The notes below the pieces were generated by a model. It ran no database searches, was not told the DNA's origin, and saw only the letters and a program-made list of their open reading frames with translations. DNA of 64,000 nt from Phyllobates terribilis (taxonomy: Eukaryota), in assembly GCF_046119375.1 (NCBI RefSeq), contig NW_027362772.1, positions 279,000,001-279,064,000 on the forward strand, read 5' to 3'. Below, piece after piece: positions 44,669 to 64,000 of the stretch (its first letter is position 1; the number at the start of each line of letters is the position of its first letter). A program made the translations under genes and the position numbers.

Positions 44669-45842
44669 TGTGACGCTCTCAGCCCTCACCCTGGGAAGTG
44701 GGTTTACTCAGAGCCGGGTCAGTTGTTGGGGGGGGTTGCAGTCGTGGCCCGGACCCGGTCCGTGCCCAGGGCGGTCACATAAAAGATTTAATGGGCTTTG
44801 AGTGGTAATTTTCCGACTACGCCACCTACGGTTTCCGGTGATGGACACCAGCGCTGTCTCAGTCCACTGAGGCCGGTGTTACGGACAGCTAAGATGGGAC
44901 GGCTCCCCGCAGGCGGAGCAGGCCTCAGGGCAGTGTGAGGAAGGATGGTGGGTCCAGTGCCACGCAGTAAATAACAGGCTGAAGCGGGGTGTGAAGTCAT
45001 CCAGGGTTTTTACTCACATTAAAATGAACTTTAGCCGCAAAGCTTCCCTCTGCTCCTCGCGGCGTGCTGCGGCCACCAGGAAGGGGGTCCAGCACTTTCC
45101 AGATAGATCAGGAGCACCTGTCAAGACCCCGTTGGTGTGTTCCTCTCCTTCTCCCTCACTTTCTCCTTCTCCTCCCGCTTGTGTCCCCCCTCCGGGATCC
45201 ACTAAGCCGCTGGGCTTTCCAACAGTGACGTGAAGTACACAGTCAGATATCGGGGGCCGGTCACCCCTCTTGCAGCAGGAGTTCCTCTGGCTTGGCCAGA
45301 GTGAAGAAATACAGGTGGCGTATGCCGCTCCGTCCGTATCCCCCAGGGATCCTTTTGCCTGTGGAGCTTGTCTCCTCTACTCCCCTCCAGGCCTTCTTAG
45401 GTAGGGACCTTGACCAGGTAGAGACAGTGGTTAACTCAGACCCGCTCCTTGTCTCAAGGCCAGAGCACGAGGACCGTGTATCTCCAATCAGCTGCAGGTT
45501 CTAACAGAAAGCCACGTTCAGTGATGAAGATCACAATCAAAAGACCTTGAACCTAAGATGGCCGTTAGTTAAATATGATGCTATTAGTGCATCCTAAAAG
45601 TGTGTCCTCCACCCTCACCCACTACATGGTTCCCCCTATCTTTGGTTCCCCCCCATCTCCTCTATCCCGGGACGGGGCAGCACCCTGGTGCATCTAGGCC
45701 CCCTACAGGACAGGAGTGGTGCAGTGTTGGGTGGTGAAGTAGGGTCCTGAGAAGTGCTCCATCCTTACCTGGAAGAGGAGATACCACACCTCTAGCTGAG
45801 GTGCAGTACCCCTGTGGCGACTGAACCCTCAGGGGCGCCACA
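44669..45842 (-). mobile_element. Solo LTR of the tRNA-Ser Gypsy clade
   Basis: TGTGACG...GCGCCACA, perfect TSD GAGT, internal CCGACTACGCCA at 44813-44824. It interrupts a short CTGCTACAT-type repeat. Confidence 0.88.
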
Positions 45843-48418
45843 GAGTCATCTCTGCTACATCACTACATTGGATCTCCTACCTACTCAACTCTGCTATATC
45901 GCTGGGCTCTACTACAGTGAGTCCCTTAAACTACTCAACTCTGCTACATTGCTGGGCTCTGCTACATTGCTACAGGTGTGAAGGAGGAGAGGTGCAAACA
46001 AGAGGGACCTGAAGGCCTCTCTCTGCCACATAAGAAGATACAAGTTTTATGAAAGGCACATTTTGCAATTAGGCCCAGAAGCTTTAAATCAAATGTCCAA
46101 CTACTATACTAGACTGAACAGAGAATTTTCTATAAGTTGGATGAATTTATTTAAATACTTTTATGAAATCACAGCCAAAATTCATTGTCTTAGTTTGGAC
46201 ACATTTATGAAATATGTTGGAACTGTAACAAGTTCTTAATATTTTTTAAGACAAATGCATACCCCTGGAAATGTCATTTTAACATTTTACAACCTTATCT
46301 GGCCATGTGGTGTGTGACACATTATCAGATACATCCTGTTTCATTTATGATGGAGGGACTCTAAAAGTCACAAAGCCTATTTTTATAGGGCCATCAGGCA
46401 GACTTACTATTCTTAAAAGGCCAGCAGTCGGCCTTCGCTATTGTTAGAGAGCCATCAGCCGGCTATGCTTTGTTGTTCCCATTATTAACGAGTGGGTCTC
46501 CTATACTGTTATTGCGTATGCAGTGATTGCAAGGGCTGCCAAAAATTCGGACGCAACCCAATACCCCTTTGAAGAGACATAGAGGAAGGTCTTAGTAAAA
46601 AAAATGTTCCCATTATAAAGGAGCGGATCTATTATAGTGGTAATGCCCATGCTGTGACTGCAAAACCCCACTAAGAATTTAAAGACACATAGAGCAGGGG
46701 CACAGTAACAAGTACGACATGTTCCCATTAGAAAGGAGCGGGTGTGCTATACAGTTATAGGGTATGCAGTGAGTCCAACGGCTGACCAAATTTAGGAAAA
46801 ACTCCACTAAGAATTTAAAGACACATAGAGCAGGGCCACAGTAACGAGAAATTCCCATTAGAAAGGAGAGGGTCTCCCATAGTGTTGGCCTATGCAGTGA
46901 ATGCAAGGGCTGCCAAAAATTGGGAGACACTTCAATGCTCCTTGGAAGAGACTTAGAGAGCCTCATAAAAAAATATTCCCATTAGAAAGGAGCGGTTCTC
47001 CTATACTTGTAATGCCCATGCGCTAAGTGTATGTGTGGCACCCCAGGGGTCTGGTTTTCCACAGTAATGTAATGTTATGTCTGAGAGCAGGTGGGAGGTC
47101 CTTTGGTCAGGGATCCTGTGCATGCCACACCTCCTGCCCAGTCTTGGGAGGGGAAGAACTTCCCCTGTATAAACCCGGGGCTGAGGCAGGGTGAGTCAGA
47201 CAAGGAGAGTGGAGAAGAGAAGCAGCATAGGAAACAGCAGAGTTACTAGGAGTCAGGGGCTGGCAGCTACAGAGCTCGCCCTGACTAAGAAGATTCTTTA
47301 CCGGACCCGGAGTCCGAGGCTGTGGGGACTAACTCCTACCCAGCAGCAGAATCCGTCGGGCAGGGGATTTCAGGTCCTCTGGCCCAGAAGCCCGAAGGCA
47401 CGGTCACACGCGTGGGACCAGCACCGCCATCGTGGAGCGGAAGCCATTAGAAGGCCCCGAGTCACCGGCCATACGGGTGAGCACCACACGGTACACTCAG
47501 GGACGTGGGCTACTTACATCAGCTTCTAGCAAGGTAGCCAGAAGAGTACAGTCAGTTTGGGAGGCCTACAACTACGCCTGGCCAGGGGAGATCCCATCTG
47601 CTCAAAGACTGACCAGGCCCCGTTTGCTAGCAAGTACTCCGGGAGGGTCTGTCGTTGTTACCAGTAAAGACCCTGAACTACACCGTACCGTCTCTGAGTG
47701 GTTCCTGCTACCCCCATCATCCACGTCGGCTGCCCTGAGGCCATACCCCTCCCGTTGGGGGTTATACTATCACGCTGCACAATCCCACCATCGGCCTCAG
47801 CGGTCTGCCCTGCAGCAGCAGCCCCCTGGCTGCACTCAACGGGTGGCGTAGTCATCAACCATTTACTACTAATGGACTGCCGTCTAGTTTGACTCCCTGG
47901 GCACGGACCGGGTCACCGCCACGAGACTACAACCCTCCACAGATCCGGCTCCGGGTAAGCTCCCGCATGCGCAGCGCAGCGCGACACAGGCCCAGGGGCG
48001 CGTCAACTTTGGCGTAGTCGGCAGGATTTCGTGCCCGCAACCACCGGGTACTGCGTGCCTGAAAAGCAAAGACTGTTCAAACTTACCAGTGGTGAAGATT
48101 CCCGCCATCCGCGAAGTTTTCCCGCCATCCGGCGCCATCTTCGACCTTCTTCCCGCCATCCGTGGAGTTTTCCCGCCATTGGACGCCATCTTGAGGACGC
48201 CGCGCGGGAAGAAGAGGGGCGTGGACTCCGAAAGCGCGCGAGAACTGAAGCCCCGCCTCACGTCCGGACGTTGCGTAAGGTCCTGGAAGGAGCCCAGCAG
48301 ACGCCGACGTCACAGGAGCGCGACGGAAGGTCCTCAACCCTGACGATCCACTGCGGAGCCGCGGCCTACGGAAGAGGATCATCGCAAGGTAGGCCACGGT
48401 CCACTAGGGGGGAGGAAG

Positions 48419-49399
48419 ATGTCGGATACGGAGGAGAGCTTCACTGCCCCAACCCCCGCCAGCGCTACCGCTGCTGCAGTTATGCCCTTCACCATGCCCT
48501 ATATCCCGGGAGCAGCTTGGCTACCCCAGTACTCAGGGGAGTCACATACCCTGCATGACTTTAGAGAAAAGCTGGATAGCCTCTTCCAGGTGTACCCCCT
48601 CACAGAAGAGCAAAAAGTGAGCATCCTGGTGGCCCAACTAACCGGGGCAGCCAAAAGGGAAGTAAAATCCTGGCCACCTGGGAGGAAGACTGTCGCAGGG
48701 ATACTAACCCGGCTGAAGGACACCTTTAATACCCGCACCTCAGCCGAGATTAAGCTTAGATTCTACGGGTGCAAGCAGCGAGCGCATGAGAGTATAAGGG
48801 ACTATGCACTAAACCTACAAGAGGCCCTGAGGGCCATAAAGCAGACCGACCCTGATGGGGTGGGAAACGAGGACAGGCTGTTGACTGAACAATTTATAGA
48901 GGGTTTATATTGCAATGCCCACCGAACCCAGTTGCGGGCAATGGCCTTACAGGATCCCCATCTGGACTTTGCACAGTTCAAGGACAGAGCCATCCGGGTG
49001 CTCCGAGAACCGGCACCAGGTGGCGTTGTGACCCACAGACGCCCCACTACCACTTACTACCAGGAGGCGGCGCCCTTGTCAGCAGGGCCTGTGGGAGCTG
49101 ATGCGCAGGCTTTGGACAATGACCCGGCTCCAGACCTACACCATCAGGTCCAAGAGCTAGCTAAGAGCGTTGCTGCGCTAACCCGAACTGTGCAGTCTTT
49201 ACAGGTTTCCACCCCAGGGAAGATCCAGCTGGCATCCGGACCGGAGGACATCCCGTGGCGTCGACCAAGGAGGACCCCACCGGCCAGAGGAAGACCCAGT
49301 GACCGATACAGCGAGGACGGACGACCCATCTGCCGCCGCTGCAATCAACCCGGACATATGGAAAGGTACTGTTCTTTAAACGGGCACAACCTGGGGTAG
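48419..49399 (+). CDS. Gag of element C, 326 aa, with a CCHC knuckle
   Basis: Intact ORF ending CRRCNQPGHMERYC. Confidence 0.93.
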   Translation: MSDTEESFTAPTPASATAAAVMPFTMPYIPGAAWLPQYSGESHTLHDFREKLDSLFQVYPLTEEQKVSILVAQLTGAAKREVKSWPPGRKTVAGILTRLKDTFNTRTSAEIKLRFYGCKQRAHESIRDYALNLQEALRAIKQTDPDGVGNEDRLLTEQFIEGLYCNAHRTQLRAMALQDPHLDFAQFKDRAIRVLREPAPGGVVTHRRPTTTYYQEAAPLSAGPVGADAQALDNDPAPDLHHQVQELAKSVAALTRTVQSLQVSTPGKIQLASGPEDIPWRRPRRTPPARGRPSDRYSEDGRPICRRCNQPGHMERYCSLNGHNLG

Positions 49400-49433
49400 A
49401 GGGCCAACCCCCAGGAAAAAGATCACCAGGCCC
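49375..49433 (+). promoter_or_regulatory. Predicted -1 ribosomal frameshift signal: slippery heptamer plus H-type pseudoknot
   Basis: T TTA AAC in the gag frame, 8-nt spacer, stem 1 CCTGGGG/CCCCAGG, stem 2 GGGCC/GGCCC. Confidence 0.75.
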
Positions 49434-49455
49434 ATCGAACTGGCGCGACAGATAT

Positions 49456-52400
49456 GTGGGAGGACGTCCAGTCTTGCCTGTGGTACTGGATGGCATTCCC
49501 ATGAGTGCCCTACTGGATACCGGGTCACAGGTCACCACCATCCCGTACGTGCTCTTCAAGCAGTACTGGAATGACTCGGATATTACCCACTACCCTGACG
49601 ACGACTTGAGTATCATCGCCAGCAATGGCCAGCCCGTGCCACAGATCGGATTTAAGGAGGTGGCCCTCAAAATCGGTAGAGTCGAACTGGCCGCACAGGG
49701 ACTGATCATTGTAGATATTGATAAACATGAGAGTCACCCAAAAATAACTCTAGGAACTAACGTAATTGAAAATTGTCTTGCAGAGGTGATTTTCCTTTTA
49801 CAGCAGGTTGCCAAGAACGCCAGCTCCGGCGAGCAGCGGGTGCTCCAGAAAGAGATCCGGGCACTGATGCAACGGCAACAAGTGGAACTCTCCGGCGGTG
49901 AGATTGGTAGCGTAAGAATGTGTGACCCTTTTCCTATTGCCATGCCCCCAAAAAGTGAAATGATGATTTGGTGCCGGGCAGCTATTGGTCTGAGAGGAAG
50001 AGATTACCAGGCAATGGTAGAACCAGTTTACTCAGACAGTAGGCCCACCATTTTGACAGCACGGGGGGTGGTCAATGTACGCCATGGGAGGGTGCCCATT
50101 CGCATAATAAATATCGGGGAGAGGGAAGTGTACCTGCCCCGGTATGCCACGCTAGCCAAATTATATACCACTAATCAAAATTCTATACAATCTGTGGAAC
50201 CCTTGCCTCCATCTCACCCGGAGGACGGTAACGGCTCTAAGAAAGACATGGAGGACTGGTGTCAGCAACTACATTTGGGTACTGATTCCACTCCCTCACA
50301 TCAGAAACAAGGAGTCTATCGGGTGGTTCAAGAGTATGAGAGAGTGTTTAGTAAACACCCGTTAGACTTCGGGCGAGTCAAGGGGGTAGAACACCGCATC
50401 CCCACGGGAGATCATCCTCCCATAAAAGAGAGGTATCGACCCGTACCCCCTGCACATTACCAACACGCCAAGGGGATGCTTAGAGACATGAAGGAGGCTG
50501 GGGTAATCCGGGATAGCTGTAGCCCCTGGGCAGCCCCACTAGTTTTAGTCAAAAAGAAAGACAACACCATGAGGATGTGTGTAGATTACCGGAAAATCAA
50601 CCGTATCACACACAAGGATGCGTACCCCTTACCAAGGATAGAGGAGTCATTGGCTGCTTTAAGATCTGCTAACTTCTTCTCTACCTTGGATCTCACTAGC
50701 GGGTACTGGCAGGTTCCTGTAGCAGAGGCGGACCGGGAGAAGACCGCATTCACCACCCCGATGGGACTTAGTGAGTTCACCTGCATGCCGTTCGGACTCT
50801 GCAACGCCCCAGGAACCTTCCAACGATTAATGGAGTGCTGTCTGGGCCACAGAAACTTCGAGACGGTCCTGTTGTACCTGGACGATGTCATCGTATACTC
50901 CAAAACTTATGAGGACCACCTGAAACACCTGGCGGAGGTGTTCGAAGCTCTGGCGAGTTACGGCCTAAAGGTGAAACCCTCCAAGTGTCACCTCCTGAAA
51001 CCAAAGGTGCAATACCTGGGACACGTGGTGAGCGCTGACGGAGTGGCTCCCGACCCCGATAAGATCACCGCAATTAAGGGATGGCCAAGCCCCTCCAGCG
51101 TAAAAGAAGTGCGGCAGTTCCTAGGGTTGGTAGGCTACTACCGAAGGTTTATTCCCGGTTTCACCAAAAAGGCAGCGCCTATGCAGGACCTCCTGATAGG
51201 CCAGTCCCGGAAGGCCAAGAACCAGAAGCCGCCCTTCAAATGGGAAGAGCTAGAAGAAGAGTCCTTCCGCCAGCTGAAGATGGCCCTCACGGGGGATGAA
51301 ATCTTGGCGTACCCAGACTATAGCCAGCCCTTCATCCTCTACACCGACGCCAGTAACATCGGGCTAGGAGCCGTACTATCCCAGATTCAGCAGGGGAGAG
51401 AACGAGTGATCTCCTATGCCAGCCGAAAACTGCGACCCACCGAAAGGAACCCCGAGAATTACAGCTCATTTAAGCTAGAGTTCCTGGCCGTGGTATGGGC
51501 AGTCACCGAGCGCTTTAGGCATTACCTCGCTTCTTCCCGGTTCACCGTATACACGGATAACAACCCGTTGATACACCTGGACACGGCAAGACTCGGTGCC
51601 CTGGAGCAGAGGTGGATGGCCCGTCTGTCCAACTACGAGTTCACAATCAAATACCGGGCAGGACGCTCCAATACTAACGCCGATGCCCTGTCCAGGATGC
51701 CCAACCTGCCGGACGAAGGAGAAGATCCGGAGGGACTGGAAGAAGTTGAACTCCCTGCGTTCCACCGTCATGGGACTATCCAGTATTCCCACCGGGTAAG
51801 GGGTAAACAGGCTGCTACGTTGAACCCCTTACCCCACTACAACTGGGCGGAAACGCAAGACAGCGACCCTGCCGTCCGACTGGTGAAGGAGATGCTGACT
51901 CGGCCGGAGGCTCGACTTGAACCAGACGCTCCGGAGGAAGCCAAACAACTATGGGCGGAGAAGAGTCGACTATTCCTTTACAAGGGGAAGTTGTGCCGCA
52001 GAATGGTCAACTCCCAGACGCATGAACTACTCTGGCAAGTAGTGGTGCCACGAAGAGATGCAGCCATGGTGATGGAGGCATACCACGACGGAGCTGGACA
52101 CTTCGGGTGGAAAAAGCTGGAGTTCCTGCTGCGCGAGCGGTTCCACTGGGTAGGCATGAGGGGAACCATCGAGAAGTGGTGCAGAGACTGTGGCCCGTGC
52201 AATCTGAGAAGGAAGGACCGGGCCAGCCAGAAGACTCCCCTGCAGTCCATCGTCACCCGGCAACCGTTGGAACTGGTAGCCTTGGATCATGTAAAACTGA
52301 CCCCAAGCAGAAGTGGCTACGTCTACGCGTTAACCATCGTGGATCATTACTCCCGGTTCTTGGTTGTCGTCCCCGTCAAGGACTTAACGGCTCAAACAGC

Positions 52401-53511
52401 AGCTAGAGCCTTCCAGCAGCACTTCTGCCGTCCACACGGGTACCCGGACCAAGTGCTGACGGACCAGGGACCTGCCTTTGAAGCGGAGGTCTTCCAGGAA
52501 TTCTGCAATCTGTATGGCTGCCGGAAGATAAGGACGACACCCTACCATCCGCAAACTAATGGACTTTGTGAAAAAATGAACCAGGTGGTAATGGATCTGC
52601 TAAAAACATTGCCCCTGGAAGAACGCAGTCTGTGGCCTGAGAAGTTGCCCGATCTGGTGGACCTATACAACCACATCCCGGTAGGTTCCACCAACTGTAC
52701 CCCGGCTTACCTAATGAGGGCGAGACCTGGTAAGTTACCTGTTGACCTGGAAATGGGAGTCCTGACACCTGAGGACACTTCACCAGAAACAGACTGGGAC
52801 ACAGAGAGGCAGCAGCAGTACCGGAGAGTACAAGAGAGCGTGGAGCGAAGTCTCTGTCAGGCTAGGGAAAGACAAGAGAAGACTTACAACCAGTATGCTC
52901 CCGCTGTTCCCCTGGTACCCGGAGAGCAGGTCTTGAAGAGGAAAAGACGGCTCCACAAGTTGGATGACCAGTGGGAGGAGGACCCGTACACCGTACTGCC
53001 CTCAAGCCACGAGAACCCGAAGGTCTGTACCATCAGTAAAGACGGAGGGGAAACCACAGCCATTGTATCCCGGGACCACCTGAAGAAGTGTCCCGAACAA
53101 CTGAGGAACCCTGAAGAGGAACAAGAAGACCATCGACCCGTGGAAGAAAGGGAAGATATGGTTAGTACCGTGCTCGGGGACTTCCCTCAGTCTTGGACTC
53201 AAGTCAATGGTGCAGTTGTGGTACCCGTACTCACCTTCCTCCAACCATCATCCCAAGAACCTACGGAGCAACGGGTAGAGCTGGAAGAACAGCCGGTCCA
53301 GGAGGCAGAAGACTCCACACAAGCAGAACAGGAGAATCAACCCTCTGCTTATAGTGAGCCTGCCGTACCCCTAGTGAGACAAAGAGCCGGTAGACAGCTG
53401 CCCAGTTTACCCTTGACAGCTCCTACACCCTGTAGTTCAGGGCCAGACAGTCAGCTCTGTAGGTCCACTCGGGCCACTAGAGGCCAGTTACCCGCACGCT
53501 GGAGAATTTAA
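49456..53511 (+). CDS. Pol of element C (PR-RT-RNase H-IN), probably expressed by -1 frameshift from gag
   Basis: Uninterrupted 1351-aa frame, -1 relative to gag. Motifs LDTGS, YLDD, YTDAS, HDGAGH...CGPC, LDHV, TDQG, NGLCE. Confidence 0.95.
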   Translation: MGGRPVLPVVLDGIPMSALLDTGSQVTTIPYVLFKQYWNDSDITHYPDDDLSIIASNGQPVPQIGFKEVALKIGRVELAAQGLIIVDIDKHESHPKITLGTNVIENCLAEVIFLLQQVAKNASSGEQRVLQKEIRALMQRQQVELSGGEIGSVRMCDPFPIAMPPKSEMMIWCRAAIGLRGRDYQAMVEPVYSDSRPTILTARGVVNVRHGRVPIRIINIGEREVYLPRYATLAKLYTTNQNSIQSVEPLPPSHPEDGNGSKKDMEDWCQQLHLGTDSTPSHQKQGVYRVVQEYERVFSKHPLDFGRVKGVEHRIPTGDHPPIKERYRPVPPAHYQHAKGMLRDMKEAGVIRDSCSPWAAPLVLVKKKDNTMRMCVDYRKINRITHKDAYPLPRIEESLAALRSANFFSTLDLTSGYWQVPVAEADREKTAFTTPMGLSEFTCMPFGLCNAPGTFQRLMECCLGHRNFETVLLYLDDVIVYSKTYEDHLKHLAEVFEALASYGLKVKPSKCHLLKPKVQYLGHVVSADGVAPDPDKITAIKGWPSPSSVKEVRQFLGLVGYYRRFIPGFTKKAAPMQDLLIGQSRKAKNQKPPFKWEELEEESFRQLKMALTGDEILAYPDYSQPFILYTDASNIGLGAVLSQIQQGRERVISYASRKLRPTERNPENYSSFKLEFLAVVWAVTERFRHYLASSRFTVYTDNNPLIHLDTARLGALEQRWMARLSNYEFTIKYRAGRSNTNADALSRMPNLPDEGEDPEGLEEVELPAFHRHGTIQYSHRVRGKQAATLNPLPHYNWAETQDSDPAVRLVKEMLTRPEARLEPDAPEEAKQLWAEKSRLFLYKGKLCRRMVNSQTHELLWQVVVPRRDAAMVMEAYHDGAGHFGWKKLEFLLRERFHWVGMRGTIEKWCRDCGPCNLRRKDRASQKTPLQSIVTRQPLELVALDHVKLTPSRSGYVYALTIVDHYSRFLVVVPVKDLTAQTAARAFQQHFCRPHGYPDQVLTDQGPAFEAEVFQEFCNLYGCRKIRTTPYHPQTNGLCEKMNQVVMDLLKTLPLEERSLWPEKLPDLVDLYNHIPVGSTNCTPAYLMRARPGKLPVDLEMGVLTPEDTSPETDWDTERQQQYRRVQESVERSLCQARERQEKTYNQYAPAVPLVPGEQVLKRKRRLHKLDDQWEEDPYTVLPSSHENPKVCTISKDGGETTAIVSRDHLKKCPEQLRNPEEEQEDHRPVEEREDMVSTVLGDFPQSWTQVNGAVVVPVLTFLQPSSQEPTEQRVELEEQPVQEAEDSTQAEQENQPSAYSEPAVPLVRQRAGRQLPSLPLTAPTPCSSGPDSQLCRSTRATRGQLPARWRI

Positions 53512-55127
53512 AGTGTATAAATTGTTTTATTTATGTTTTTCTGTGTATTGTTGCTTGTGAATAATTTTGTGTTTCCAGTTGTTTTTAGGAAACCTTGGTG
53601 GATTTACCGGGAATCCTTGTATATAGTTGGAGCGTAACCCAGGATGGACTAGAGACTGTTAAGGACTCGGGGTAGGACAGACCCCTACCTGGTTACGTCT
53701 CCCTGTGTTGGTGAAATGGACACCTTTGCTTTTCTTCAAAGACTGCACCCGGTTGCGGACACGCCGCAACCATCTTATGTGTTTTTCTTATAGTATTGTT
53801 ATTGTTATACTTTGTTATGTTTTTCTAAATGTGTTTAGTCCCGGAGTACTAAATTTCACTAGGGGGGAATGTGGCACCCCAGGGGTCTGGTTTTCCACAG
53901 TAATGTAATGTTATGTCTGAGAGCAGGTGGGAGGTCCTTTGGTCAGGGATCCTGTGCATGCCACACCTCCTGCCCAGTCTTGGGAGGGGAAGAACTTCCC
54001 CTGTATAAACCCGGGGCTGAGGCAGGGTGAGTCAGACAAGGAGAGTGGAGAAGAGAAGCAGCATAGGAAACAGCAGAGTTACTAGGAGTCAGGGGCTGGC
54101 AGCTACAGAGCTCGCCCTGACTAAGAAGATTCTTTACCGGACCCGGAGTCCGAGGCTGTGGGGACTAACTCCTACCCAGCAGCAGAATCCGTCGGGCAGG
54201 GGATTTCAGGTCCTCTGGCCCAGAAGCCCGAAGGCACGGTCACACGCGTGGGACCAGCACCGCCATCGTGGAGCGGAAGCCATTAGAAGGCCCCGAGTCA
54301 CCGGCCATACGGGTGAGCACCACACGGTACACTCAGGGACGTGGGCTACTTACATCAGCTTCTAGCAAGGTAGCCAGAAGAGTACAGTCAGTTTGGGAGG
54401 CCTACAACTACGCCTGGCCAGGGGAGATCCCATCTGCTCAAAGACTGACCAGGCCCCTTTTGCTAGCAAGTACTCCGGGAGGGTCTGTCGTTGTTACCAG
54501 TAAAGACCCTGAACTACACCGTACCGTCTCTGAGTGGTTCCTGCTACCCCCATCATCCACGTCGGCTGCCCTGAGGCCATACCCCTCCCGTTGGGGGTTA
54601 TACTATCACGCTGCACAATCCCACCATCGGCCTCAGCGGTCTGCCCTGCAGCAGCAGCCCCCTGGCTGCACTCAACGGGTGGCGTAGTCATCAACCATTT
54701 ACTACTAATGGACTGCCGTCTAGTTTGACTCCCTGGGCACGGACCGGGTCACCGCCACGAGACTACAACCCTCCACAGATCCGGCTCCGGGTAAGCTCCC
54801 GCATGCGCAGCGCAGCGCGACACAGGCCCAGGGGCGCGTCATATGGGCTGACAAACATTTACCCCTAGGGGGTATACATGAACATACTGTATAAAAAAAA
54901 AATTTTAAGGACATCATAAACACCCTTTAAAAAAATTATGTGGGTGTTCCATCACGGACCACGGTTACCCTGGTGATGTGGTGGTGGAGGATGAGGATGA
55001 GGAGGAGTAGGAAAAGAGCAAATAGCCAAAATCAGGAAGTGTATACCCATGTGTGGGTGTGAAAAGGTGCATGGGAATACACCTCCCAAAAAAAGACAGT
55101 GGATTTGAGTTTATGTTATGCTGCTAT

Positions 55128-58100
55128 TGTGGCGCCCCTGCGGGTTCAGTGGACACAGAGGTACTGCATCTCACCCAGAGGTGTGGTATCCCACTCTCAG
55201 GTAAGGATGGAGTACTGCCCAGGACCCAAACACCTGCATCCAACACTACACTACTCCAGACAGCAGGAGGGGCAAGATCCATTGCTGCGCTGCTGAGCCC
55301 TGACCCTGGCTGGAGTGGGGGGAACCAAGAGGGGAACTATGTAGTGGGTGTGAGTGGAGGAAGCAGTTCAGGGGAGCACTTGAGAAGGAGGATATAAAAA
55401 GGGGAAGCCATCTTGGGAGTGTGAGAACAGTCTGAGGGAACAGTGAGGAGAGAGTGTGTGGAGCAGGAGCTCTGCAGGAGCTCTGCTCAGGAGGAGGGCC
55501 TAGTGAGAGAGGCCCAGGACAGACTGAAGAGAGGAGAGGAACAGGAAGGAAGGCTCCAGAATAGAAAGGATCCCAGGGGCACGGGCAGTGCGGATGCCAC
55601 CCGTGCGCCCGAATCCACCAGGAGTGGAAGGATCAGGCCGCAGAGAGGGGACCGGCCCCTAAACTAGCAGAGTTCTTCAAGTCTCAACTAGATAACCGGA
55701 GGCTGCAGCATTTCAGGTGCTGCAGCCAACAGCCACATCTAATCGCTAAAAAGGTGACCATAGAGGACCCAGGGGACAGAGAAGACGTCGCCAGACAGTG
55801 TCCGCAGTCACTGGCTTGGGACACTCAGTGTGAGGCGCAGGGCAGGAGGGTGAGAGCCAGCGCAGGAAGACGACTAGAAAAGGCACACAGAACGGGGTCC
55901 CGTTACGTACTCCGGAGGTACCTGGGAGTTTGCTGAACCCCTCCCAGGGTAAACACAGGATGGCGTGGGGAGTTACCCTGGCCCTGGTAACTTGGAGTCT
56001 AAAAATCGTGAGTAAAACCCTGAAGACTGCACCCCACTGTCTCTGCGAATTATTACTGCGCCATCATCCCCTGCACCGCTCTGCACAACAGCAACATCTA
56101 TTACATCCCCACTACTCTGCCCTGGAGCTAAGCTCTACCCGTGGAGAGCTGAACCAACTCTGCTGCATTAACAACAGCTCCAGAGAACCTGCTCCACAGC
56201 GGTGGCTCCTTTTAGCCGCATACCACAGGTGGCGTCACGAACATTTCATAAAAACTATAATCCTTTTCTTTAAAACCCCTTTTAATTGACCGCCCTGAGT
56301 CACGGACCAGGTCACCGCCACTGTGACATCTCCCCTAGCAACGACAGGCCCGGCTACCGAGTACCCCACGGCCCAGGGGGCGCGTCATTATTTTGGCGTC
56401 ACGAACAGGATATGAACTTACCCGTTATCACCGGGTATTGTGCGCCTAGAGACTGTGTTCTATACTGAATGTGGCGCCCACCCTAGAAGAACGGGCGTCA
56501 TTATGTGCGTTATCAAGGATGACAAGAAACCTCCCATCGTAGGCCGGGTTCCAGAATGGCGCCAAAAGCACAACCCGCCCCATGCGCCTGTGGCCATATA
56601 CCTGGATCTGTCCATCAGTCTGGGGAAGCTGCCTCCGGGTGTGGCTGACAGCAAGCAGCCATGGGACCGCCCCAGAAAGGGGAGAGGAGAGAAGAAACCT
56701 GGGAGACAGGGCGAAGTTTCCAGCAGTCTAGACAGACCGCACCCGGCAGGCAAGATGGAGAGAGGTCAGCCTGAAGCTCCGTCTTGTGGTCTGCAGCCCG
56801 AGGCAGAACCCCTCACCATGGAGGGGATGCTAACAAAGTTGTCCCTGGAGGACACCAGCTTTATCCGGGATGAGATGCAAGAACTGGGCAGGAGGATGGA
56901 AGAGGCCCAGCAAGCTGCGATTGCTGCCTGAAGAGTGGACCTGGTGGAGAAGTTGATGACCCGGCAGCAGTCGGCGTTGCAAGTGACCGGCAGTGCTCCG
57001 GCCCCGGCGGAGCTGCACACAGACCAGGAGGTGTCAGTCGCGGGAGCAGGTAGGAGAGATCCCCCTGTCCTGGACGTGGCTGGCGCTGCTCCGTCCCTCT
57101 TCCCTCTGGCGGAACCTTGGTCTCCGGGCGCTCACGCCACAGAACTGCTCCTGGGCCTGGAACCATCAACCCCGGGCGCTGGTGATGCAGACCTGCTCCT
57201 GTGCCCCCTGCTAGAGCCACATGCCTCTACACCTGAATGGGTGTACGGACGCACGGCCTGGGACTGGTCCGCGGAGGTGGAAGACCAGAGCCTCCCGTTG
57301 CTGCCCTCTCCTGTGCTCTCAGTCGCCCACCAGGAAGAAGGAGATCCATTCCTGTGGGATAACCCGGGAGGGGACCTCATGGGCCTTCCCCGGGAGGAGC
57401 ATTGCCGGCGGGAGCTCCTGCAGTTGGAAAGGAGCGGCGCATCTGGCGGGTGCGCTGGGAGAAGATGGAGGCGAGGAACATGGAGGAGAAGACTCGGGCC
57501 CGCAAGGCAAAAACAGCCGCACCCAGTCCCCACGTAGAAGGGACTGTCGTGAAGTTCGACCTGGATGCCGGGTGGGGCTTCATCAGAGAGCCACAGGTCG
57601 CGACGGATTTATTTGTTAATCGGAGGGACGTGGAGTCCCACCTCCAGCAAGGACATCCTGACCGAGATCTGTACCCTGGTGACCGAGTCACCTACACCAG
57701 GCATAGAGGTGAGCGGCGCTGGTATGCCCTGAATGTATACAGGGTAGTGGAGGAGGACATGCCCCTGCAATCAGAGGCTGATGACCCGGCTGGGCCAGCC
57801 TACAGCAGACAGGTGTCTCCCCGGAGGAAGCACCACTACTAAGCACAGTATGTGAAACTGAACTGTACTGTATATAGTTAACCGGAAGGGTACATCCTTG
57901 TTTGAGTGAACTAAAAAGTTTTGTGTGCATGATTACCCGGTAAGGGTAAACAAACTGACAGGCTGAGGACTGTGAGCAGACAAAAACTTTTAAACTGTAC
58001 ATAGTTTGCACTTATTAAAGTGCCTCTTATTGGTGTTATATTAAAAGACCACTGAACAAAAACCTGTTTGGCGAGGCCGAAGATGTGGTCCAACAGCTGG

Positions 58101-58208: not shown

Positions 58209-59939
58209 TAGTGTTGAGCGAGCACTAAAATGCTCGGGTGCTCGAAGCTCGGGCCGAGCTCGCCGTGATACTCGGGTGCTCGACCCGAGCAACGAGCCCA
58301 ATGTTAGTGACGCGCCCCCTGGGACATATTCCTTTTTGAGGGGAATACCCGGCACCGGATCAGATGGGGGGTTGTAGTCTCCGAGCGGCTGTGACCCGGT
58401 CCGTGCCCAGGGCGTCAAACTCAGTGTTATGTGGCAGTCCTACAGATGTTATTAAGAGTTCTTTTGTGTCGACTACGCCACCCGTTGTGATGCGGTCACT
58501 GTGGCCGCCGCTGCAGCAGGGTCCGCTGAGGCTGATGGTGGGTGCGCAGCTTGGTGGGATAACCCCCAACGGGAGGGGTATAGCCTCAGGGGGGACAGGT
58601 GCAGAGGATGGGGGTTGTGGTGGTGCAGTGCAGACGGCAATGAAGACAGAGTCGGGTTGTGCAGTTAAGGGTGTTTACTTACTGCAGATGTTGTACTGGT
58701 CACTCCAGCTTCGAGTGACCACCCGAGCCGTGCTGCGTCCACCAGGTCCTGGATCCAGCCAACCCCCAAACAAGTCCGGAGCGTGGCCCTGAGCTCTCCT
58801 TCTGTCCCGTTCTCTGGCCGTCCCCACCAGTGATCCACCTAGGTCCAGCTCCCTCGGGCCTTCTGTTGGGACACCCTTGGCCTTGGGTTCCCTGACCCTT
58901 CATGTGGTGTGCCTTCGGGGTGGATGTGATGGGTGACCGTGGCAAACGCTGCCCACGGTCTCCGGTCTCTGGCTAGGGTGTGTTTTCTGCCCCCACCAGC
59001 TTGGGTTCCGGTACCCTGTGCCGACTCCTCACCCGGTGCTTTAATTTGGGTTCTTGGGTCCTCTCTGTTTTCCCCTCTGGGTACTCCTTCTCTGCTCCTC
59101 TCTCACTCAGGGTCTTTCTTCTCCTCTGCTCGCTGACTTGTTCTCTGCATCTGACCCTGTTCTTAGTTGGTGCCCACCTTATATACACCCTCTATGTGTG
59201 AGCTCAGGTGACCAGCACCCAATGAGCTCCTATCTTTACCCAGGCTGCTCCCCCTATCTGCCCCTACACTACTTGGGATGTACCACCCCCCTCCCACTCC
59301 AGCCAGGAACAGACTCGGTCGTACCTGCACATTTCTAAGTGGGAGTACCGTCGGCCTGTTCCTCGGAAATGGGATGTGTGTAGTGCATGCAGCCTACCGA
59401 GCTCAGTTTCACACTCCTTCCTTACCCGGGAGTGGAATATCACACCTCTGGGTTGAGGTGCAATACCCCTGTAGCAGCCGAATCCTCAGGGTGCTACATT
59501 CCCCCCTGGTAAATCACAGCACGTCCTCGGGCTGTAAGACATAAATAACACCAAAACATACATTTTTTTTTTTCATAAACATATAAAACAACATATATTA
59601 GCAAATAAAACATTCTCGTCGCCTCTGGCTCCTCCTCCGGTCACTGTGCAACGTGTGACCGGGTACAGTGCGACAGTCTTTCTAGAAAACATAGTTTTCC
59701 TATAAAACCAGTAGGGGGCGCTTTAGGAAGCGCAACTATTTACAGGGGAAGTTGGCCGCTCTCAGTCCTCGGCCAGGTAAAGGGAAGGGAATGGCTGCTC
59801 ACAGTCCTCAGCCTGATATGGATACGGAATAACGGGTGAACAGTTCACTCAGCTGGTCCCAACGGGGACTATATATATGTAGCAACAGTTTCTTTGTACC
59901 CCGGTCGGGTAACTATTTACATCTACTGCTCTGCCGCAC

Positions 59940-60908
59940 TCAACGGCGTCTTCCTCCTGCTCTTTGCTTGTAGCTGGTTGTAACTTCAGACCCGTCCGGG
60001 TCCTCTTGCTCTTCCTCCTCACACCGCAGCTCTTCCTCCGTCAGGCGATGCACATGGAGGGCGTAGGGACCTTTGGCACACTTGTGCCGGGTGAAGGTGA
60101 CCTCGTCCCCGATGTAAAGGTCACGACCTCTGTGTCCCTCCGGTAGGTGGGACTCAACGTCTCTCCTGGTTACGAAGACGTCGCCTAGGGTGTGGTGGTC
60201 TCGGATGAAGCCCCACCCATGCTGCAGGTTAAACTTTATCACAGTCCCGGTGGTGCGGGGACTATGCGCTGCACGGGGGTCTCTCCTGGCCCGGCTCTTC
60301 TGCTCCGCGCTCCTTACTTGAGCTTGCTGTTCCCGGACCCGCCTCTCTCTCCGCTCCCTTGCGAACTCTTCGAGCTGCTGTCGGCAACACTCAGCACGCT
60401 CCGCTGCAGCTGCCCTGGTTTCCTGAGTGAACCCCATTAGATCTTCTCCGGTGGGGTCCCACTCAAACTGTGCTTCCGCTAGCGGGGGCGAGATCCGTGC
60501 CACGGGCTTCGGAGCCGGAATCAGGGGTTCATCCAGGGGTCTTAGTCTCTGCTGCCGTTCCAGCTCATGGTATTCTTCGGGCCAGATGAAGGGCCGACCG
60601 TCCGGCCATGTGAGCTGGCTGAACAAGACCTCCCCCAGGTGTGGCACCCTTGGTTTTACGGGCGCGGGCGCGGTGGTGGTGGCGCCCGGGTTGCCCAGGC
60701 CTTGCGGCCAGGCCTGGGGCACCTGGAAGGTGAAGGGCACCGCTAGGACGGCGGCGCCCTGGGCTACCTGGCCTTGCGGCCAGGCCGGAGGCTCCGCGGA
60801 GGTAGGGGGCGCTGTTGGTGATGCGGCGCCCGGGGGTACTAGGCCTTGCGACCAGGCTGGTGGTATTTCCTGCTTTGTCACGCTCCGGGTCGAGGCGCGT
60901 GACGTCAC
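59940..60908 (-). CDS. Element E ORF2 (322 aa): Pro/Gln-rich repeats, WDPTGEDLMG motif, coiled coil and cold-shock domain (60045-60248)
   Basis: GTVIKFNLQHGWGFIRDHHTLGDVFVTRRDVESHLPEGHRGRDLYIGDEVTFTRHKCAKGPYALHV. The start codon is a GTG overlapping the ORF1 stop. Confidence 0.75.
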   Translation of the reverse strand: MTSRASTRSVTKQEIPPAWSQGLVPPGAASPTAPPTSAEPPAWPQGQVAQGAAVLAVPFTFQVPQAWPQGLGNPGATTTAPAPVKPRVPHLGEVLFSQLTWPDGRPFIWPEEYHELERQQRLRPLDEPLIPAPKPVARISPPLAEAQFEWDPTGEDLMGFTQETRAAAAERAECCRQQLEEFARERRERRVREQQAQVRSAEQKSRARRDPRAAHSPRTTGTVIKFNLQHGWGFIRDHHTLGDVFVTRRDVESHLPEGHRGRDLYIGDEVTFTRHKCAKGPYALHVHRLTEEELRCEEEEQEDPDGSEVTTSYKQRAGGRRR

Positions 60909-61768
60909 AGGGGTCGCTGCGGCGGCTTCCGGTTGGGCCTAGTCCATAGCGGTGACATGGCGGCTACGGGCACAGCAGGGGGACTTTCGGGCTCTGCGAC
61001 GGGGAGCTGGGGCAGGTACGCGGTTTCCCGGTTTGGGGTGTAGGCGTCCCCTTTACCTGCCTCCATGCGTTCGGCTCCCTTCTCGGCGTCGTCTCCGGCC
61101 TTTGGTCCTCCCGCGCCATCCTCAGAGGCGGTCTGTTTCCTCTTCCAGGGTAGCGTGCTCCGTTGACTGGTCTCAGCTTGCTGGGCCATCTCCCGGCTCC
61201 ATTCCGCCAATATCTCGCGCTGTACCCGGGCCATCCTCCTTGCGAGGCCCTCCAGAGCGGTCTGTGCACACTCCCGGTCTCGGGGGAGCTGTGCAAGGAC
61301 CTCCACTAGGCCTAGTGGGGTCGTGGTGTCTAGCAGGCTCCTGACCAACGGGTCGGTGCTGCTCTGCTCTTCCTCCAGCAGGCTCCTGGCCAGCGGGCCG
61401 GTGCTGCTCTGCTCGCCTTCCTCGGTCTCTAGCAGACTCCTGGCCAGCGGGCCGGTGCTGTTCTGCTTTCTCTCCATGTCCGGGTAAGCTCCTCCGCTAC
61501 TCCTCGTTAGACTTCTTGCCTCCGGGTGCGCTCGCTCCAGACTGCTCCAGGCGGCACCCATCTTCGTTCTTTTCTTTCGTCTCCTCCCACTTCGAGGGCG
61601 GTCCCGGGGCAACTCGGTGACTGTCAGCTCCAGGGGCAGTTCTTTCACGCTGACAGACACCTCTAGCATCACAGTCTCTGTTGGTGGGGGCGGTTTCCAC
61701 TTTTGGCGCCATTTTCTGTCCTGGCCCACGATGGGAGGCGGCCTCCTGCCCTCCTTTGGCACGCCCAT
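60905..61768 (-). CDS. Element E ORF1 (287 aa from the first ATG; frame open from 62047): N-terminal block and coiled coil shared with D
   Basis: MGVPKEGRRPPPIVGQDRKWRQKWKPP...LP...PRDRPRSGR aligns with D MCVIKDDKKPPIVGRVPEWRQKHNPP...LP...PWDRPRKGR. Confidence 0.65.
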   Translation of the reverse strand: MGVPKEGRRPPPIVGQDRKWRQKWKPPPPTETVMLEVSVSVKELPLELTVTELPRDRPRSGRRRKKRTKMGAAWSSLERAHPEARSLTRSSGGAYPDMERKQNSTGPLARSLLETEEGEQSSTGPLARSLLEEEQSSTDPLVRSLLDTTTPLGLVEVLAQLPRDRECAQTALEGLARRMARVQREILAEWSREMAQQAETSQRSTLPWKRKQTASEDGAGGPKAGDDAEKGAERMEAGKGDAYTPNRETAYLPQLPVAEPESPPAVPVAAMSPLWTRPNRKPPQRPL

Positions 61769-64000
61769 AATGGCGTCCGCTGCTCTTCCAAGGCGGGAAA
61801 TCTTCGGATTTGGCGGGAAGCGTCGCCCAGTGGCGGGAAACTCTGCAGATGGCGGGAACAAGCTGGAAATGGCGGACAATCGGCGGGAAACGACCTGTGA
61901 TGGGGTCCGATGGCGTGGACCCTCCGGAACCGGCGGGAGACTTCTTTCTGAGGTAAACTTGCACTTTTCTTCAGGCACGCAGTACCCGGGTGTTGCGGGC
62001 ACGTAATCCTGCCGACTACGCCAAAGTTGACGCGCCCCCTGGGACATATTCCTTTTTGAGGGGAATACCCGGCACCGGATCAGATGGGAGTTGTAGTCTT
62101 CCGAGTGGCTGTGACCCGGTCCGTGCCCAGGGTGTCAAACTCAGTTGTATGTGGCAGTCCTACAGATGTTATTAAGAGTTCTATCCTGCCGACTACGCCA
62201 AAGTTGACGCGCCCCCTGGGACATATTCCTTTTTGAGGGGAATACCCGGCACCGGATCAGATGGGGGGTTGTAGTCTCCGAGCGGCTGTGACCCGGTCCG
62301 TGCCCAGGGCGTCAAACTCAGTGTTATGTGGCAGTCCTACAGATGTTATTAAGAGTTCTTTTGTGTCGACTACGCCACCCGTTGTGATGCGGTCACTGTG
62401 GCCGCCGCTGCAGCAGGGTCCGCTGAGGCTGATGGTGGGTGCGCAGCTTGGTGGGATAACCCCCAACGGGAGGGGTATAGCCTCAGGGGGGACAGGTGCA
62501 GAGGATGGGGGTTGTGGTGGTGCAGTGCAGACGGCAATGAAGACAGAGTCGGGTTGTGCAGTTAAGGGTGTTTACTTACTGCAGATGTTGTACTGGTCAC
62601 TCCAGCTTCGAGTGACCACCCGAGCCGTGCTGCGTCCACCAGGTCCTGGATCCAGCCAACCCCCAAACAAGTCCGGAGCGTGGCCCTGAGCTCTCCTTCT
62701 GTCCCGTTCTCTGGCCGTCCCCACCAGTGATCCACCTAGGTCCAGCTCCCTCGGGCCTTCTGTTGGGACACCCTTGGCCTTGGGTTCCCTGACCCTTCAT
62801 GTGGTGTGCCTTCGGGGTGGATGTGATGGGTGACCGTGGCAAACGCTGCCCACGGTCTCCGGTCTCTGGCTAGGGTGTGTTTTCTGCCCCCACCAGCTTG
62901 GGTTCCGGTACCCTGTGCCGACTCCTCACCCGGTGCTTTAATTTGGGTTCTTGGGTCCTCTCTGTTTTCCCCTCTGGGTACTCCTTCTCTGCTCCTCTCT
63001 CACTCAGGGTCTTTCTTCTCCTCTGCTCGCTGACTTGTTCTCTGCATCTGACCCTGTTCTTAGTTGGTGCCCACCTTATATACACCCTCTATGTGTGAGC
63101 TCAGGTGACCAGCACCCAATGAGCTCCTATCTTTACCCAGGCTGCTCCCCCTATCTGCCCCTACACTACTTGGGATGTACCACCCCCCTCCCACTCCAGC
63201 CAGGAACAGACTCGGTCGTACCTGCACATTTCTAAGTGGGAGTACCGTCGGCCTGTTCCTCGGAAATGGGATGTGTGTAGTGCATGCAGCCTACCGAGCT
63301 CAGTTTCACACTCCTTCCTTACCCGGGAGTGGAATATCACACCTCTGGGTTGAGGTGCAATACCCCTGTAGCAGCCGAATCCTCAGGGTGCTACATTAGT
63401 CTATGGAAGACCCGAGCAGTTTTGCGGTGGCACCCCCGGCAGTCTTTTAAAAGCTTAACAAGTGCCCAAAACGATAGTGACAGTGCTCAAATGACATGGG
63501 GACAGCATGGGGATCGCCCCAGGAAGCATTTCTAACCCCCAGGTCATTGCTGTCAACAACGTGGTCAGAGGTATTAAGCCACTTTTAAGGGCTCACAATA
63601 AAACGTTCAAAAACGAAACTGAAACTGCTTTACTGTGAAATATGTTAAGGAAGTTCCTTTCCAGGGTAAAGACTTGTGTATAAGATAAAATAAATAACCC
63701 CCCCAAAAAATACTCCACCACACCTTGGGCTATGTTCACAAGTAGCATTTTTTTATGCGTTTTTGCACTTTTGTATTGCTTTCAACCGTGACAAATGCAT
63801 TCACAGGGAAATGTCATTTTAACATTTTACAACCTTATCAGGCCATGTGCTGTGTGACACATGCATACAGTGCTGAAAGACATGGGAACAGCATGGGGAA
63901 GACCCCTGGAAGCATCTCTGACACCCAGGTCACCGCCTAAAAGTGTGCCCATCAGTAGTGATCCTTGCCGCATCAGAAGATGCAGACTTGCAACTATCCC

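Follow-up and report, generated by a model that had tools for sequence, protein, structure and literature searches.

A partial copy of the primer binding site in the LTRs of a Ty3/Gypsy family of Phyllobates terribilis covaries with the primer tRNA

Why should a retrotransposon with a full primer binding site (PBS) carry a second, partial copy of it inside its own LTR? The question was raised by a 64-kb window of the Phyllobates terribilis genome (the window is the whole stretch of 64,000 nucleotides that was analysed). All 11 LTRs of one Gypsy clade in this window contain an internal PBS copy of 10–14 nt, degenerate in one case, and the spacing from this motif to the PBS is 151–178 nt. The first-pass annotation had located the motif in elements A to E and in two solo LTRs, and all of these copies were found again in place; the eleventh LTR was missing from its list. 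The positions are summarized in Table 1.

The family is very abundant in this genome. Its elements have direct LTRs of the form TG...CA flanked by a short target-site duplication (TSD), as is typical of Ty3/Gypsy elements, and the LTR pairs of elements B, C, and E are 99.7–100% identical with TSDs of 4 bp. A purine tract (PPT) lies ahead of each 3' LTR, and the PBS matches host tRNA-Ser genes over 18 nt. Element C codes for a gag with a zinc knuckle and for a pol of the order PR-RT-RH-IN. The pol domains were RVT_1, RT_RNaseH, Integrase_H2C2, and rve, with a DTG protease motif upstream; integrase follows RNase H, contrary to the layout of the Gmr1 lineage, where it is located upstream of the RT. 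The chromodomain that marks chromoviruses is absent from element C. An unrelated element at 16909-21036 does carry one. The match of gag to PNMA was weak (E=1.2e-4, 22 bits, below the cut-off of 25), and a search of the PDB with gag gave no match.

Table 1. Positions of the internal PBS copies and associated features in the window.
Feature	Position	Strand	Remark
Element D, internal PBS copy	56230-56243	+	14 nt, Ser-CGA type
Element D, true PBS	56394-56411	+	18 nt, complementary to the 3' end of host tRNA-Ser(CGA)
Element D, box	56317-56327	+	complementary to tRNA-Ser(CGA) nt 1-11
Element D, AGTAAA	56011-56016	+	likely poly(A) signal (from the hexamer), would put the motif in U5
Element D, 7-bp helix, left arm	56138-56144	+	5' of motif; one mismatch in the D copy
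Element D, 7-bp helix, right arm	56223-56229	+	abuts the motif on its 5' side
Element C, whole	47034-54841	+	Ty3/Gypsy, LTR identity 99.9%, 4-bp TSD
Element C, internal PBS copy, 5' LTR	47844-47853	+	10 nt, AGA type; 3' LTR copy 54680-54689
Element C, box	47918-47930	+	bulged complement of tRNA-Ser(AGA) nt 1-11; apex of predicted U5 stem
Element C, true PBS	48010-48027	+	AGA
Element B, internal PBS copy, 5' LTR	37483-37493	-	11 nt, AGA; other LTR copy 30582-30592
Element B, PBS	37298-37315	-	
Element B, box	37398-37413	-	
Element E, internal PBS copy, 5' LTR	62367-62377	-	11 nt, AGA; other LTR copy 58470-58480
Element E, mis-transfer fossil	62006-62200	-	absent from 3' LTR; exactly 18 nt of PBS (62183-62200) joined in register to post-motif sequence, then another U5 segment (94% to that of the LTR) and another PBS (62006-62023)
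Element A, internal PBS copy	1212-1224	-	13 nt, CGA; PBS 1056-1073; box 1131-1140
A-type LTR (eleventh LTR), degenerate CGA motif	8224-8236	-	2/13 mismatches
Solo LTR, AGA motif	11090-11101	-	12 nt; box about 11009-11022, like a CGA box lengthened into an AGA box
Solo LTR of second AGA lineage, motif	44813-44824	-	12 nt; box 44738-44748, pairs with tRNA nt 1-11, no bulge

Both PBS types are perfectly complementary to the 3' ends of tRNA genes that ARAGORN calls in the host genome, tRNA-Ser(aga) (L084) and tRNA-Ser(cga) (L076); the label AGA-type follows the end of L084. Motif type was tabulated against PBS type across the genomic copies, and the earlier claim that the two switch together holds genome-wide. 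An AGA motif accompanies an AGA PBS at 59,605 places, out of 69,769 exact AGA PBS 18-mers, and a CGA motif accompanies a CGA PBS at no fewer than 1,986 places out of 8,117, a count made with a narrower gap and the exact 13-nt motif. Mismatched types occur at 3 places in the genome (2 AGA-motif/CGA-PBS and 1 CGA-motif/AGA-PBS). Reversed control patterns gave 0 matches, and this covariation is not due to chance. When loci were chosen by their PBS alone, the motif was present in 30/30 CGA loci (9–13 of 13 matches), in 29/30 AGA loci, and in 30/30 loci of a second AGA lineage, AGA2 (8–11 of 11), the last sample including 8 near-copies from one array. The 19 matches obtained in a search for a third tRNA type were mutated Ser PBS, chance flanks, or satellite, as judged from the nine non-satellite loci that were read. 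Nucleotides 1–6 of the motif could presumably reflect CTCF-, YY1-, or CRE-like DNA motifs; the switching part could not. In CGA elements, motif positions 11–13 track the PBS and not the 5' strand of the tRNA (match of 100, 94, and 83%, n=36), and pairing with the box described below is therefore insufficient to explain them.

A third element switches along with motif and PBS. This box lies between the two, at 80–100 nt from the motif, a distance close to the length of a tRNA, and is complementary to nt 1–12 of the cognate tRNA. The cognate nt 1–12 pair better than those of the other tRNA in 83/89 LTR boxes (32/34, 22/22, and 29/33), a set from which 16 near-copies or broken LTRs were left out. 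The positions at which the box varies are those whose tRNA partner is U and which tolerate G-U, and A-N-C-C always follows the box. The AGA2 lineage has an additional match to tRNA nt 13–20. In AGA1, the commonest lineage, the box is bulged and the cognate tRNA is better by only 1.4 kcal/mol. L001 and L002 combine an AGA motif and an AGA box with a CGA type in the PBS only. A whole antisense tRNA within U5 was considered and rejected, as the intervening sequence departs from the tRNA when judged by eye. The first-pass annotation has neither the co-switching box nor the helix that precedes the motif, nor does it give the probable placement in U5 or the fossil in element E.

About 200 nt upstream of the motif, the hexamer AGTAAA is invariant in 26/26 subfamily representatives and is followed by a GT-rich tract; this poly(A)-signal-like hexamer is the sole basis on which the motif is placed in U5, a likely position. 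In view of the same invariant hexamer and tract, a transcription start at the motif was rejected, also because the duplications described below need no template ending there. In four contig sets across 47600-48350, no starts or ends were seen, and chimeric LTRs suitable for mapping R were too few among 63 LTRs. Directly 5' of the motif closes a 7-bp helix that is fully paired in 76/86 copies and includes two compensatory pairs with both sides changed. Folding of the free leader gives this helix a probability of just 0.24–0.36; its left arm sits in a hairpin loop, and nested folding is unable to pair such arms. The motif:box helix is not predicted in the free leader (mean probability 0.01–0.27). 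As a further candidate, a 5' hairpin that pairs the motif with a complement close by was discarded, its probability exceeding 0.5 in only 11/79 leaders.

The proposal that the motif pairs with the tRNA is borne out as far as prediction reaches: the sequence fits the tRNA 3' end and co-folds with the cognate tRNA agree. Computed median motif:tRNA duplex energies are -21.4, -21.0, and -20.6 kcal/mol in the three lineages, and a pairing of about -21 kcal/mol needs 13 nt in the CGA but 10–11 nt in the AGA lineages. The PBS:tRNA duplex reaches -34 to -37 kcal/mol, so that the motif match amounts to about 60% of the PBS pairing strength; motifs paired with the other tRNA reach -9 to -12 kcal/mol. 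In co-folds that kept the PBS open, the 3' end of the cognate tRNA was predicted on the motif in 25/25 leaders, and the other tRNA paired with the motif over at least 8 pairs in 2/25. Both tRNA strands were engaged, on motif and box, in 13/25 leaders. In AGA1 this was the case in only 1/9, and under the same open-PBS condition the cognate tRNA was ahead by 0.6 kcal/mol; in silico support in this commonest lineage is weak.

The genome also preserves about 70 fossils (72 places) in which the plus strand was transferred onto the motif rather than onto the PBS. Such mis-transfers affect about 0.1% of copies, and the sequence picks up again at motif position 18–20 in 60/71 of the inserts examined. 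Integrated products comprise 18-nt PBS copies, read-through copies of 25–53 nt, and CGA PBS on AGA leaders, and in L027 the duplication is present in both LTRs. In 13/15 of the duplications that carry a foreign insert, both the LTR and the leader belonged to the host subfamily, which indicates that strands of different elements meet at the motif site. The motif's own upstream context was joined to a full 18-nt PBS at only 5 places genome-wide. Two of these are ordinary deletions and one, L035, has a full 3' LTR; in L034, the motif of the 5' LTR has been overwritten by 18 nt of PBS, a state that agrees with internal priming and a subsequent aberrant jump but has other explanations too. None of the three elements followed has a 3' LTR that stops at the motif.

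The reading we favour, and to which we give an even chance, is that the motif is a non-priming site that captures the tRNA, unwinds its acceptor stem, and then hands it off to the PBS. Its starting point is the joint fit of motif, box, and PBS to one host tRNA, with which all three switch. Being in U5, as is likely, the motif would be confined to the 5' end of the genomic RNA. There, the free 3' end of the tRNA is predicted to pair with motif nt 1–4, and the acceptor stem would be opened by exchange, the 3' strand going to the motif and the 5' strand to the box; the order of motif before box would permit both pairings at once. Priming from the motif would be prevented by the helix abutting its 5' side and by the shortness of the match. 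Brought near by the long U5 stem, the 18-nt PBS would then receive the tRNA 3' end, with the 5' end still bound to the box. The resemblance between motif and PBS misdirects strand transfers at the low frequency given above, as the genomic products show, and through these products tRNA-copied sequence can get into the LTR and reset the motif after a tRNA switch.

A more elaborate form of this proposal is an RNA-only primer loader, in which motif and box mirror the strands of the acceptor stem, a toehold drives the exchange at an elongation-blocked dock, and the 3' end passes to the PBS. Mis-transfer products would re-template the dock from the tRNA, so that the whole module could switch tRNA as a unit. 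We regard this version as tentative and its full set of parts as rather doubtful. Against a loading site of either form stands the zinc knuckle of gag, which implies that a protein chaperone for tRNA annealing exists. Two independent tRNA switches are favoured but not proven: they are found in the best tree and in 200/200 bootstrap trees, the AU test keeps a single AGA clade possible (p=0.133), and the gag and LTR trees disagree. The metagenome elements L224 and L251 show the same predicted order of hairpin, motif, and PBS, which suggests that the proposed loader extends beyond Phyllobates terribilis. The related metagenome element L241 has no motif. Among the PBS-like metagenome matches listed, many of which are DNA other than LTR elements or are short on upstream sequence, 115/117 lack a copy of at least 10 nt.

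Because the box is made for the tRNA 5' end, it is also complementary to PBS nt 5–11, and the motif might serve as an intramolecular guard that pairs with the box in tRNA-free RNA and holds it off the PBS, following the tRNA solely through the box. The motif of L251 is indeed predicted to be paired with the box, and blocking it drops the box onto the PBS (PBS unpaired, 0.41 to 0.17); 5/20 AGA2 leaders show the motif:box fold, and the A-N-C-C could lengthen this helix. However, blocking the motif in 79 leaders changed PBS:box pairing only from 0.01–0.05 to 0.02–0.05 with PBS access barely altered, and the PBS-specific positions 11–13 of CGA motifs are left unexplained, so that we consider a guard unlikely. 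Alternatively, a second tRNA could sit on the motif during priming at the PBS and act as a brake or pause on strong-stop synthesis, as a link joining both packaged RNAs, or as a packaging handle. Five events have a junction after the LTR end that is derived from the motif and not from the PBS, and three of these lie in PPT-preceded 3' LTRs, as left when the minus strand switches from the motif to the PBS ahead of the first jump, an event that a pause in synthesis at the motif would promote. The meeting of strands from different elements in 13/15 foreign-insert duplications also agrees with such a link, and tRNA-mediated dimerisation is known in Ty3 (PMC5371799, in part). Yet plain homology of 10–11 nt yields the same junctions, and we rate a second tRNA as distinctly improbable.

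The roles initially put forward, namely routine alternative priming, an obligatory guide for strand transfer, or a decoy for 3'-tRFs, seem very unlikely. L034 is compatible with internal priming, but the products expected of these roles come to 3 of about 78,000, or to 0.1%, and routine priming at the motif is not seen, the candidate places being only 5. Of the strand-transfer role, it stands that the motif captures transfers; it does so in error and not as the normal route. For the decoy, 3'-tRFs do repress LTR elements via the PBS (PMC12853362, in part), but an extra target in cis should, as we infer, increase silencing and not relieve it. The motif could finally be a neutral relic of an old duplication that shifted the LTR end downstream and left the former PBS in U5, to be occasionally re-copied from the tRNA. 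Such duplications form now and can reach both LTRs (L027), and the replaced motif of L034 would be an instance of re-copying. Against this, the match breaks off at 10–13 nt in all lineages and leaves the following bases free, an overwritten motif was observed at 1 of about 78,000 PBS-bearing places, the motif co-evolves with its upstream helix and with the box, and it is kept across gag lineages that are about 35% identical despite the cost of mis-transfers; we give a relic hardly any credence.

How retroelements open and hold a folded tRNA and set the moment at which reverse transcription begins is known from few laboratory models, largely from mutants. In the present family, motif, box, and PBS all covary with the primer tRNA across tens of thousands of natural copies, which provides a natural swap experiment, and integrated error products by the dozen give a record, at single-base detail, of strand transfers between elements packaged together. 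Should the loading model be true, the initiation of reverse transcription gains a further step, a staging site for the primer 3' end. A tRNA and a non-coding RNA of 400 nt are enough to test the model.

No earlier description of a PBS copy in U5 was found in the literature searched, mainly the main texts of open-access papers. The closest likeness is to the bipartite PBS of yeast Ty3 and Ty1, where the primer tRNA is also paired at more than one site (PMC5371799, in part). There, the PBS is split into sites for different parts of the tRNA (PMC5371799, in part), whereas the PBS here is a full 18 nt and is accompanied by another site for the same 3' end and by a box for the 5' end. By sequence complementarity, different arms of the tRNA would also be contacted here, the 3' end by the PBS, nt 1–12 by the box, and in AGA2 also nt 13–20. 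One PBS part of the Ty3 type lies in the 3' U3; the extra sites described here are located downstream of the likely poly(A) signal. The PBS of Ty1 and Ty3 is not inherited from the tRNA (PMC5371799, in part). Unlike in these elements, tRNA-copied sequence is inherited in the present family.

In FIV, a loop of the U5-IR pairs with the tRNA 5' end, a contact that the box at the apex of the U5 inverted-repeat stem resembles. HIV has a primer activation signal and the U3 'motif 9'. To our knowledge, none of the extra contacts in HIV-1, FIV, or RSV is a direct copy of the PBS or switches with the tRNA in natural lineages. Extended pairing between tRNA and leader is reported for all three (PMC5371799, in part). 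Aberrant products of second-strand transfer have also been found integrated in HIV-1 proviruses (PMC12657518, in part); there as here, plus-strand DNA that ends at the m1A58 stop or runs into the tRNA mislands and integrates. Unlike in HIV-1, the wrong site is fixed and conserved in the present family and was used in register in dozens of insertions, and the mislanding often occurred on a strand of another subfamily. In Tf1, priming uses sequence from the 5' end of the RNA that is complementary to the PBS, and LTR sequence is tied to PBS sequence there as well; in the present family, by contrast, the motif copies the PBS directly, and the PBS itself fits a host tRNA. Self-priming of the Tf1 type is named in PMC5371799 (in part). 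Lastly, the Barthez lineage of Metaviridae is the source of the PNMA genes (PMC3670739, in part), and the present family may be akin to it: the PR-RT-RH-IN order and the absence of a chromodomain are in common, and gag gave the PNMA match below the cut-off noted above.

Five LTR elements (A-E) and three lone LTRs of one clade were found in the window, a small part of a 10.6 Gb genome. Elements A-E are Ty3/Gypsy retrotransposons, and the clade may belong to the Barthez lineage (PMC3670739). B and C contain gag and pol. Element C has LTRs that are 99.9% identical, a 4-bp TSD, the pol order PR-RT-RH-IN, and a gag that contains a zinc knuckle and weakly resembles PNMA. Its gag and pol reading frames overlap (-1), and a TTTAAAC heptamer followed by GC-rich sequence at this place is likely a ribosomal frameshift site. 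D and E lack pol; they have an ORF that ends in a cold-shock-like domain (33 bits in both, cut-off 27; 19-27 bits in other pol-less copies) and would encode an RNA-binding protein of non-autonomous LTR elements (D, E, and the second AGA lineage described below). The spacer between LTR end and PBS measures 4-7 nt in all elements; in most LTR elements it is 0-3 nt.

Positions of features in the window and of one array elsewhere in the genome
Feature	Position	Strand	Remarks
ORF ending in cold-shock-like domain, pol-less families	57363-57842	+	also at loci L344, L348, L350
ORF ending in cold-shock-like domain, pol-less families	59940-60938	-	also at loci L344, L348, L350
gag/pol overlap of element C	49370-49420		
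Mis-transfer product in element E	62006-62200	-	PBS 62183-62200; second PBS 62006-62023
Unrelated chromodomain Gypsy element	16465-21315		single 1375-aa frame; sits in 108-110 bp satellite
Remnants of Tc1-like transposase and BED-finger ORF	5614-6639, 9199-10002		
Tandem array of second-AGA-lineage element	G000:C1:438.8-440.7 Mb		dozens of copies

The two PBS types are complements of the host tRNA-Ser(AGA) and tRNA-Ser(CGA) genes, and a 10-14 nt copy of the PBS start (the motif) lies inside the LTR. This observation is real: all motif coordinates of the first-pass annotation were correct on re-examination, and a degenerate copy was found in an eleventh LTR beyond those first listed. Its claim that motif and PBS switch together holds genome-wide. 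The exact 10-nt AGA motif was located upstream of 59,605 of 69,769 AGA PBS 18-mers and, with a narrower gap, the exact 13-nt CGA motif upstream of at least 1,986 of 8,117 CGA PBSs, against three crossed pairs; these are copy numbers and not switch events. The CGA count is a lower bound, since the motif was present in 30 of 30 CGA loci chosen by PBS alone, mostly with CpG decay. Sampled loci of the AGA type and of a second, pol-less AGA lineage contained it in 29/30 and 30/30 cases, respectively. In both crossed pairs with AGA motif and CGA PBS, the box, a stretch between motif and PBS complementary to the tRNA 5' end (nt 1-12), is also of AGA type. The PBS is therefore the odd part, a pattern as might be left after priming by the wrong tRNA. 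The single CGA-motif/AGA-PBS case looks like a recombinant at the PBS.

At least one tRNA switch is certain and two are likely. A tree of LTR and leader pieces, with motif, box, and PBS removed, separated the two AGA lineages and placed them among CGA lineages. A quick tree of 63 rows gave two PBS-type changes, as did every one of 200 bootstrap trees of a careful 26-row tree. A single AGA clade was not rejected by the AU test (p=0.133), and the gag tree, in which the second AGA lineage cannot be included, showed one change. The box is bulged in one AGA lineage and unbroken in the other, and in the solo LTR at 11090 a CGA box is extended into an AGA box; both features fit separate AGA origins from CGA. 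No third primer tRNA type was found in a search of the genome.

All 26 subfamily representatives have AGTAAA, followed by a GT-rich tract, at 181-226 nt on the 5' side of the motif; A(G/A)TAAA occupies this place in 101 of 108 LTRs. AGUAAA counts among the variants of the poly(A) signal; R would therefore lie upstream, leaving the motif within a U5 about 350 nt long, found only at the RNA 5' end. Seven bases 5' of the motif are complementary to a block about 90 nt upstream, with full pairing in 76 of 86 LTRs (omitted: 9 LTRs in which no arm could be detected, and 13 that were broken or near-copies). Both positions unconstrained by the search pattern covary (T-A 45, C-G 33; G-C 61, T-A 24). The probability of this helix in nested folding is just 0.24-0.36, because its left arm lies in a hairpin loop. 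On the 3' side comes a variable linker, after which most of 13 representatives are predicted to form a long inverted-repeat stem that extends to the end of the LTR and has the box in or near its apex. In metagenome loci L251, L254, and L277, the match to the tRNA 5' end is the 3' end of the LTR itself, adjoining the PBS; the internal box of the present clade may be a former LTR end.

The computed pairing of the box was stronger with the cognate than with the other tRNA in 83 of 89 LTRs. For the second AGA lineage the values were -22.7 versus -14.2 kcal/mol, for CGA -19.5 versus -14.9, and for the main AGA lineage just -16.0 versus -14.6; shuffled sequences gave about -13 kcal/mol. Furthermore, the second AGA lineage has an extra match to tRNA nt 13-20 directly 3' of the motif. 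The two strands of the acceptor stem complement each other, so motif positions 1-10 could be read by the box too. In the CGA motif, positions 11-13 agree with the PBS alone and are conserved at 100, 94, and 83% (36 copies); at positions 15-16, <20% of copies match in any lineage. The motif:tRNA duplex was predicted at -21.4, -21.0, and -20.6 kcal/mol in three groups (PBS, -34 to -37). In co-folding with unmodified tRNA, with PBS and box bound together beyond its reach, the cognate 3' end was placed on the motif in 25/25 leaders when the PBS was held unpaired, and both tRNA strands on motif and box in 6/9 CGA, 6/7 second-AGA, and 1/9 main-AGA leaders. The pairing with the tRNA proposed earlier thus fits sequence, predicted duplex, and co-folding, at the level of prediction.

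In element E, the 5' LTR is followed by exactly 18 nt of PBS joined in register to sequence beyond motif position 18, then by another U5 segment and another PBS. The genome has 72 such places, a few of them copies of one event. Apart from element E there are 71, of which 60 continue from motif position 18-20; the remaining 11 fail the strict test, one of these lacking a duplication. Fourteen were followed to the 3' end: a single U5 was found in 12, a duplication in both LTRs in L027, and one was truncated. Plus-strand synthesis stops on the tRNA after eighteen bases (m1A58; PMC12657518), and the simplest reading is that the plus strand was transferred to the motif's minus-strand copy. The insert derives from a foreign subfamily in 15 cases. 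Thirteen of these, three of which appear to stem from a single event, keep the host's own leader, which points to a short minus strand, linked to the tRNA and belonging to a co-packaged element, as the likely template; in L189 the leader comes from the donor. Inserts of the pol-less E family inside autonomous elements (L025, L033, L014, L199, L211, and others) show that both were co-packaged. In a second class (five events from 15 hits), the junction derives from the motif; three of these events lie in 3' LTRs preceded by a PPT, the pattern that a minus-strand jump from the motif to the PBS would be expected to leave. In 14 of 30 loci (L069-L083), the PBS of an LTR element extends into 25-53 nt of tRNA sequence (the minimum was set by the search pattern), marking synthesis beyond the plus-strand stop; one of them, L074, doubles as a mis-transfer product of the second AGA lineage.

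We give the proposal that the motif is a loading site for the primer tRNA about an even chance. The free tRNA 3' end would be captured at the motif, and both acceptor strands exchanged onto motif and box. There, the short match and a helix closing right at the motif would bar elongation, and the tRNA would then be handed off to the PBS. The covariation, the conserved duplex strength, the paired changes in the helix, and the error products are documented, whereas the U5 location, the binding of RNA, the block, and the hand-off are inferred. A guard role, in which the motif pairs with the box in tRNA-free RNA and keeps it off the PBS, is unlikely: folding of L251 favors it, but across 79 free leaders motif:box pairing was not predicted and blocking the motif hardly changed PBS access. 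That a second tRNA resides on the motif appears more doubtful still.

The roles initially suggested, alternative priming, transfer guide, or decoy, are improbable even jointly. Motif context plus full PBS was found at five places genome-wide, two of them plain deletions; the 3' LTR is full in L035, and in L034 the 5' motif is overwritten by 18 nt. Priming at the motif that yields integration is therefore rare at best. As to strand transfer, the motif does receive transfers, but these are mis-transfers, seen in about 0.1% of copies; they are costly and also let tRNA-copied sequence into LTRs. A neutral relic is the least probable explanation.

A metagenome search with the Ser PBS 18-mers listed 117 matches, among which L224 and L251 have PBS copies of 12 and 10 nt, respectively, 63 and 37 nt before the PBS; each copy lies 3' of AATAAA or ATTAAA and immediately follows a predicted hairpin. 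L251 has a related gag (E=2e-9); L241 is related too (7e-17), without a PBS copy. A mostly abstract-level literature search, with few subscription papers, found no report of a second site for the same tRNA 3' end that switches with the primer. Pairing of primer tRNA and leader beyond the PBS is known for Ty1, Ty3, HIV-1, FIV, and RSV (PMC5371799), and the box of this clade may act like those contacts.
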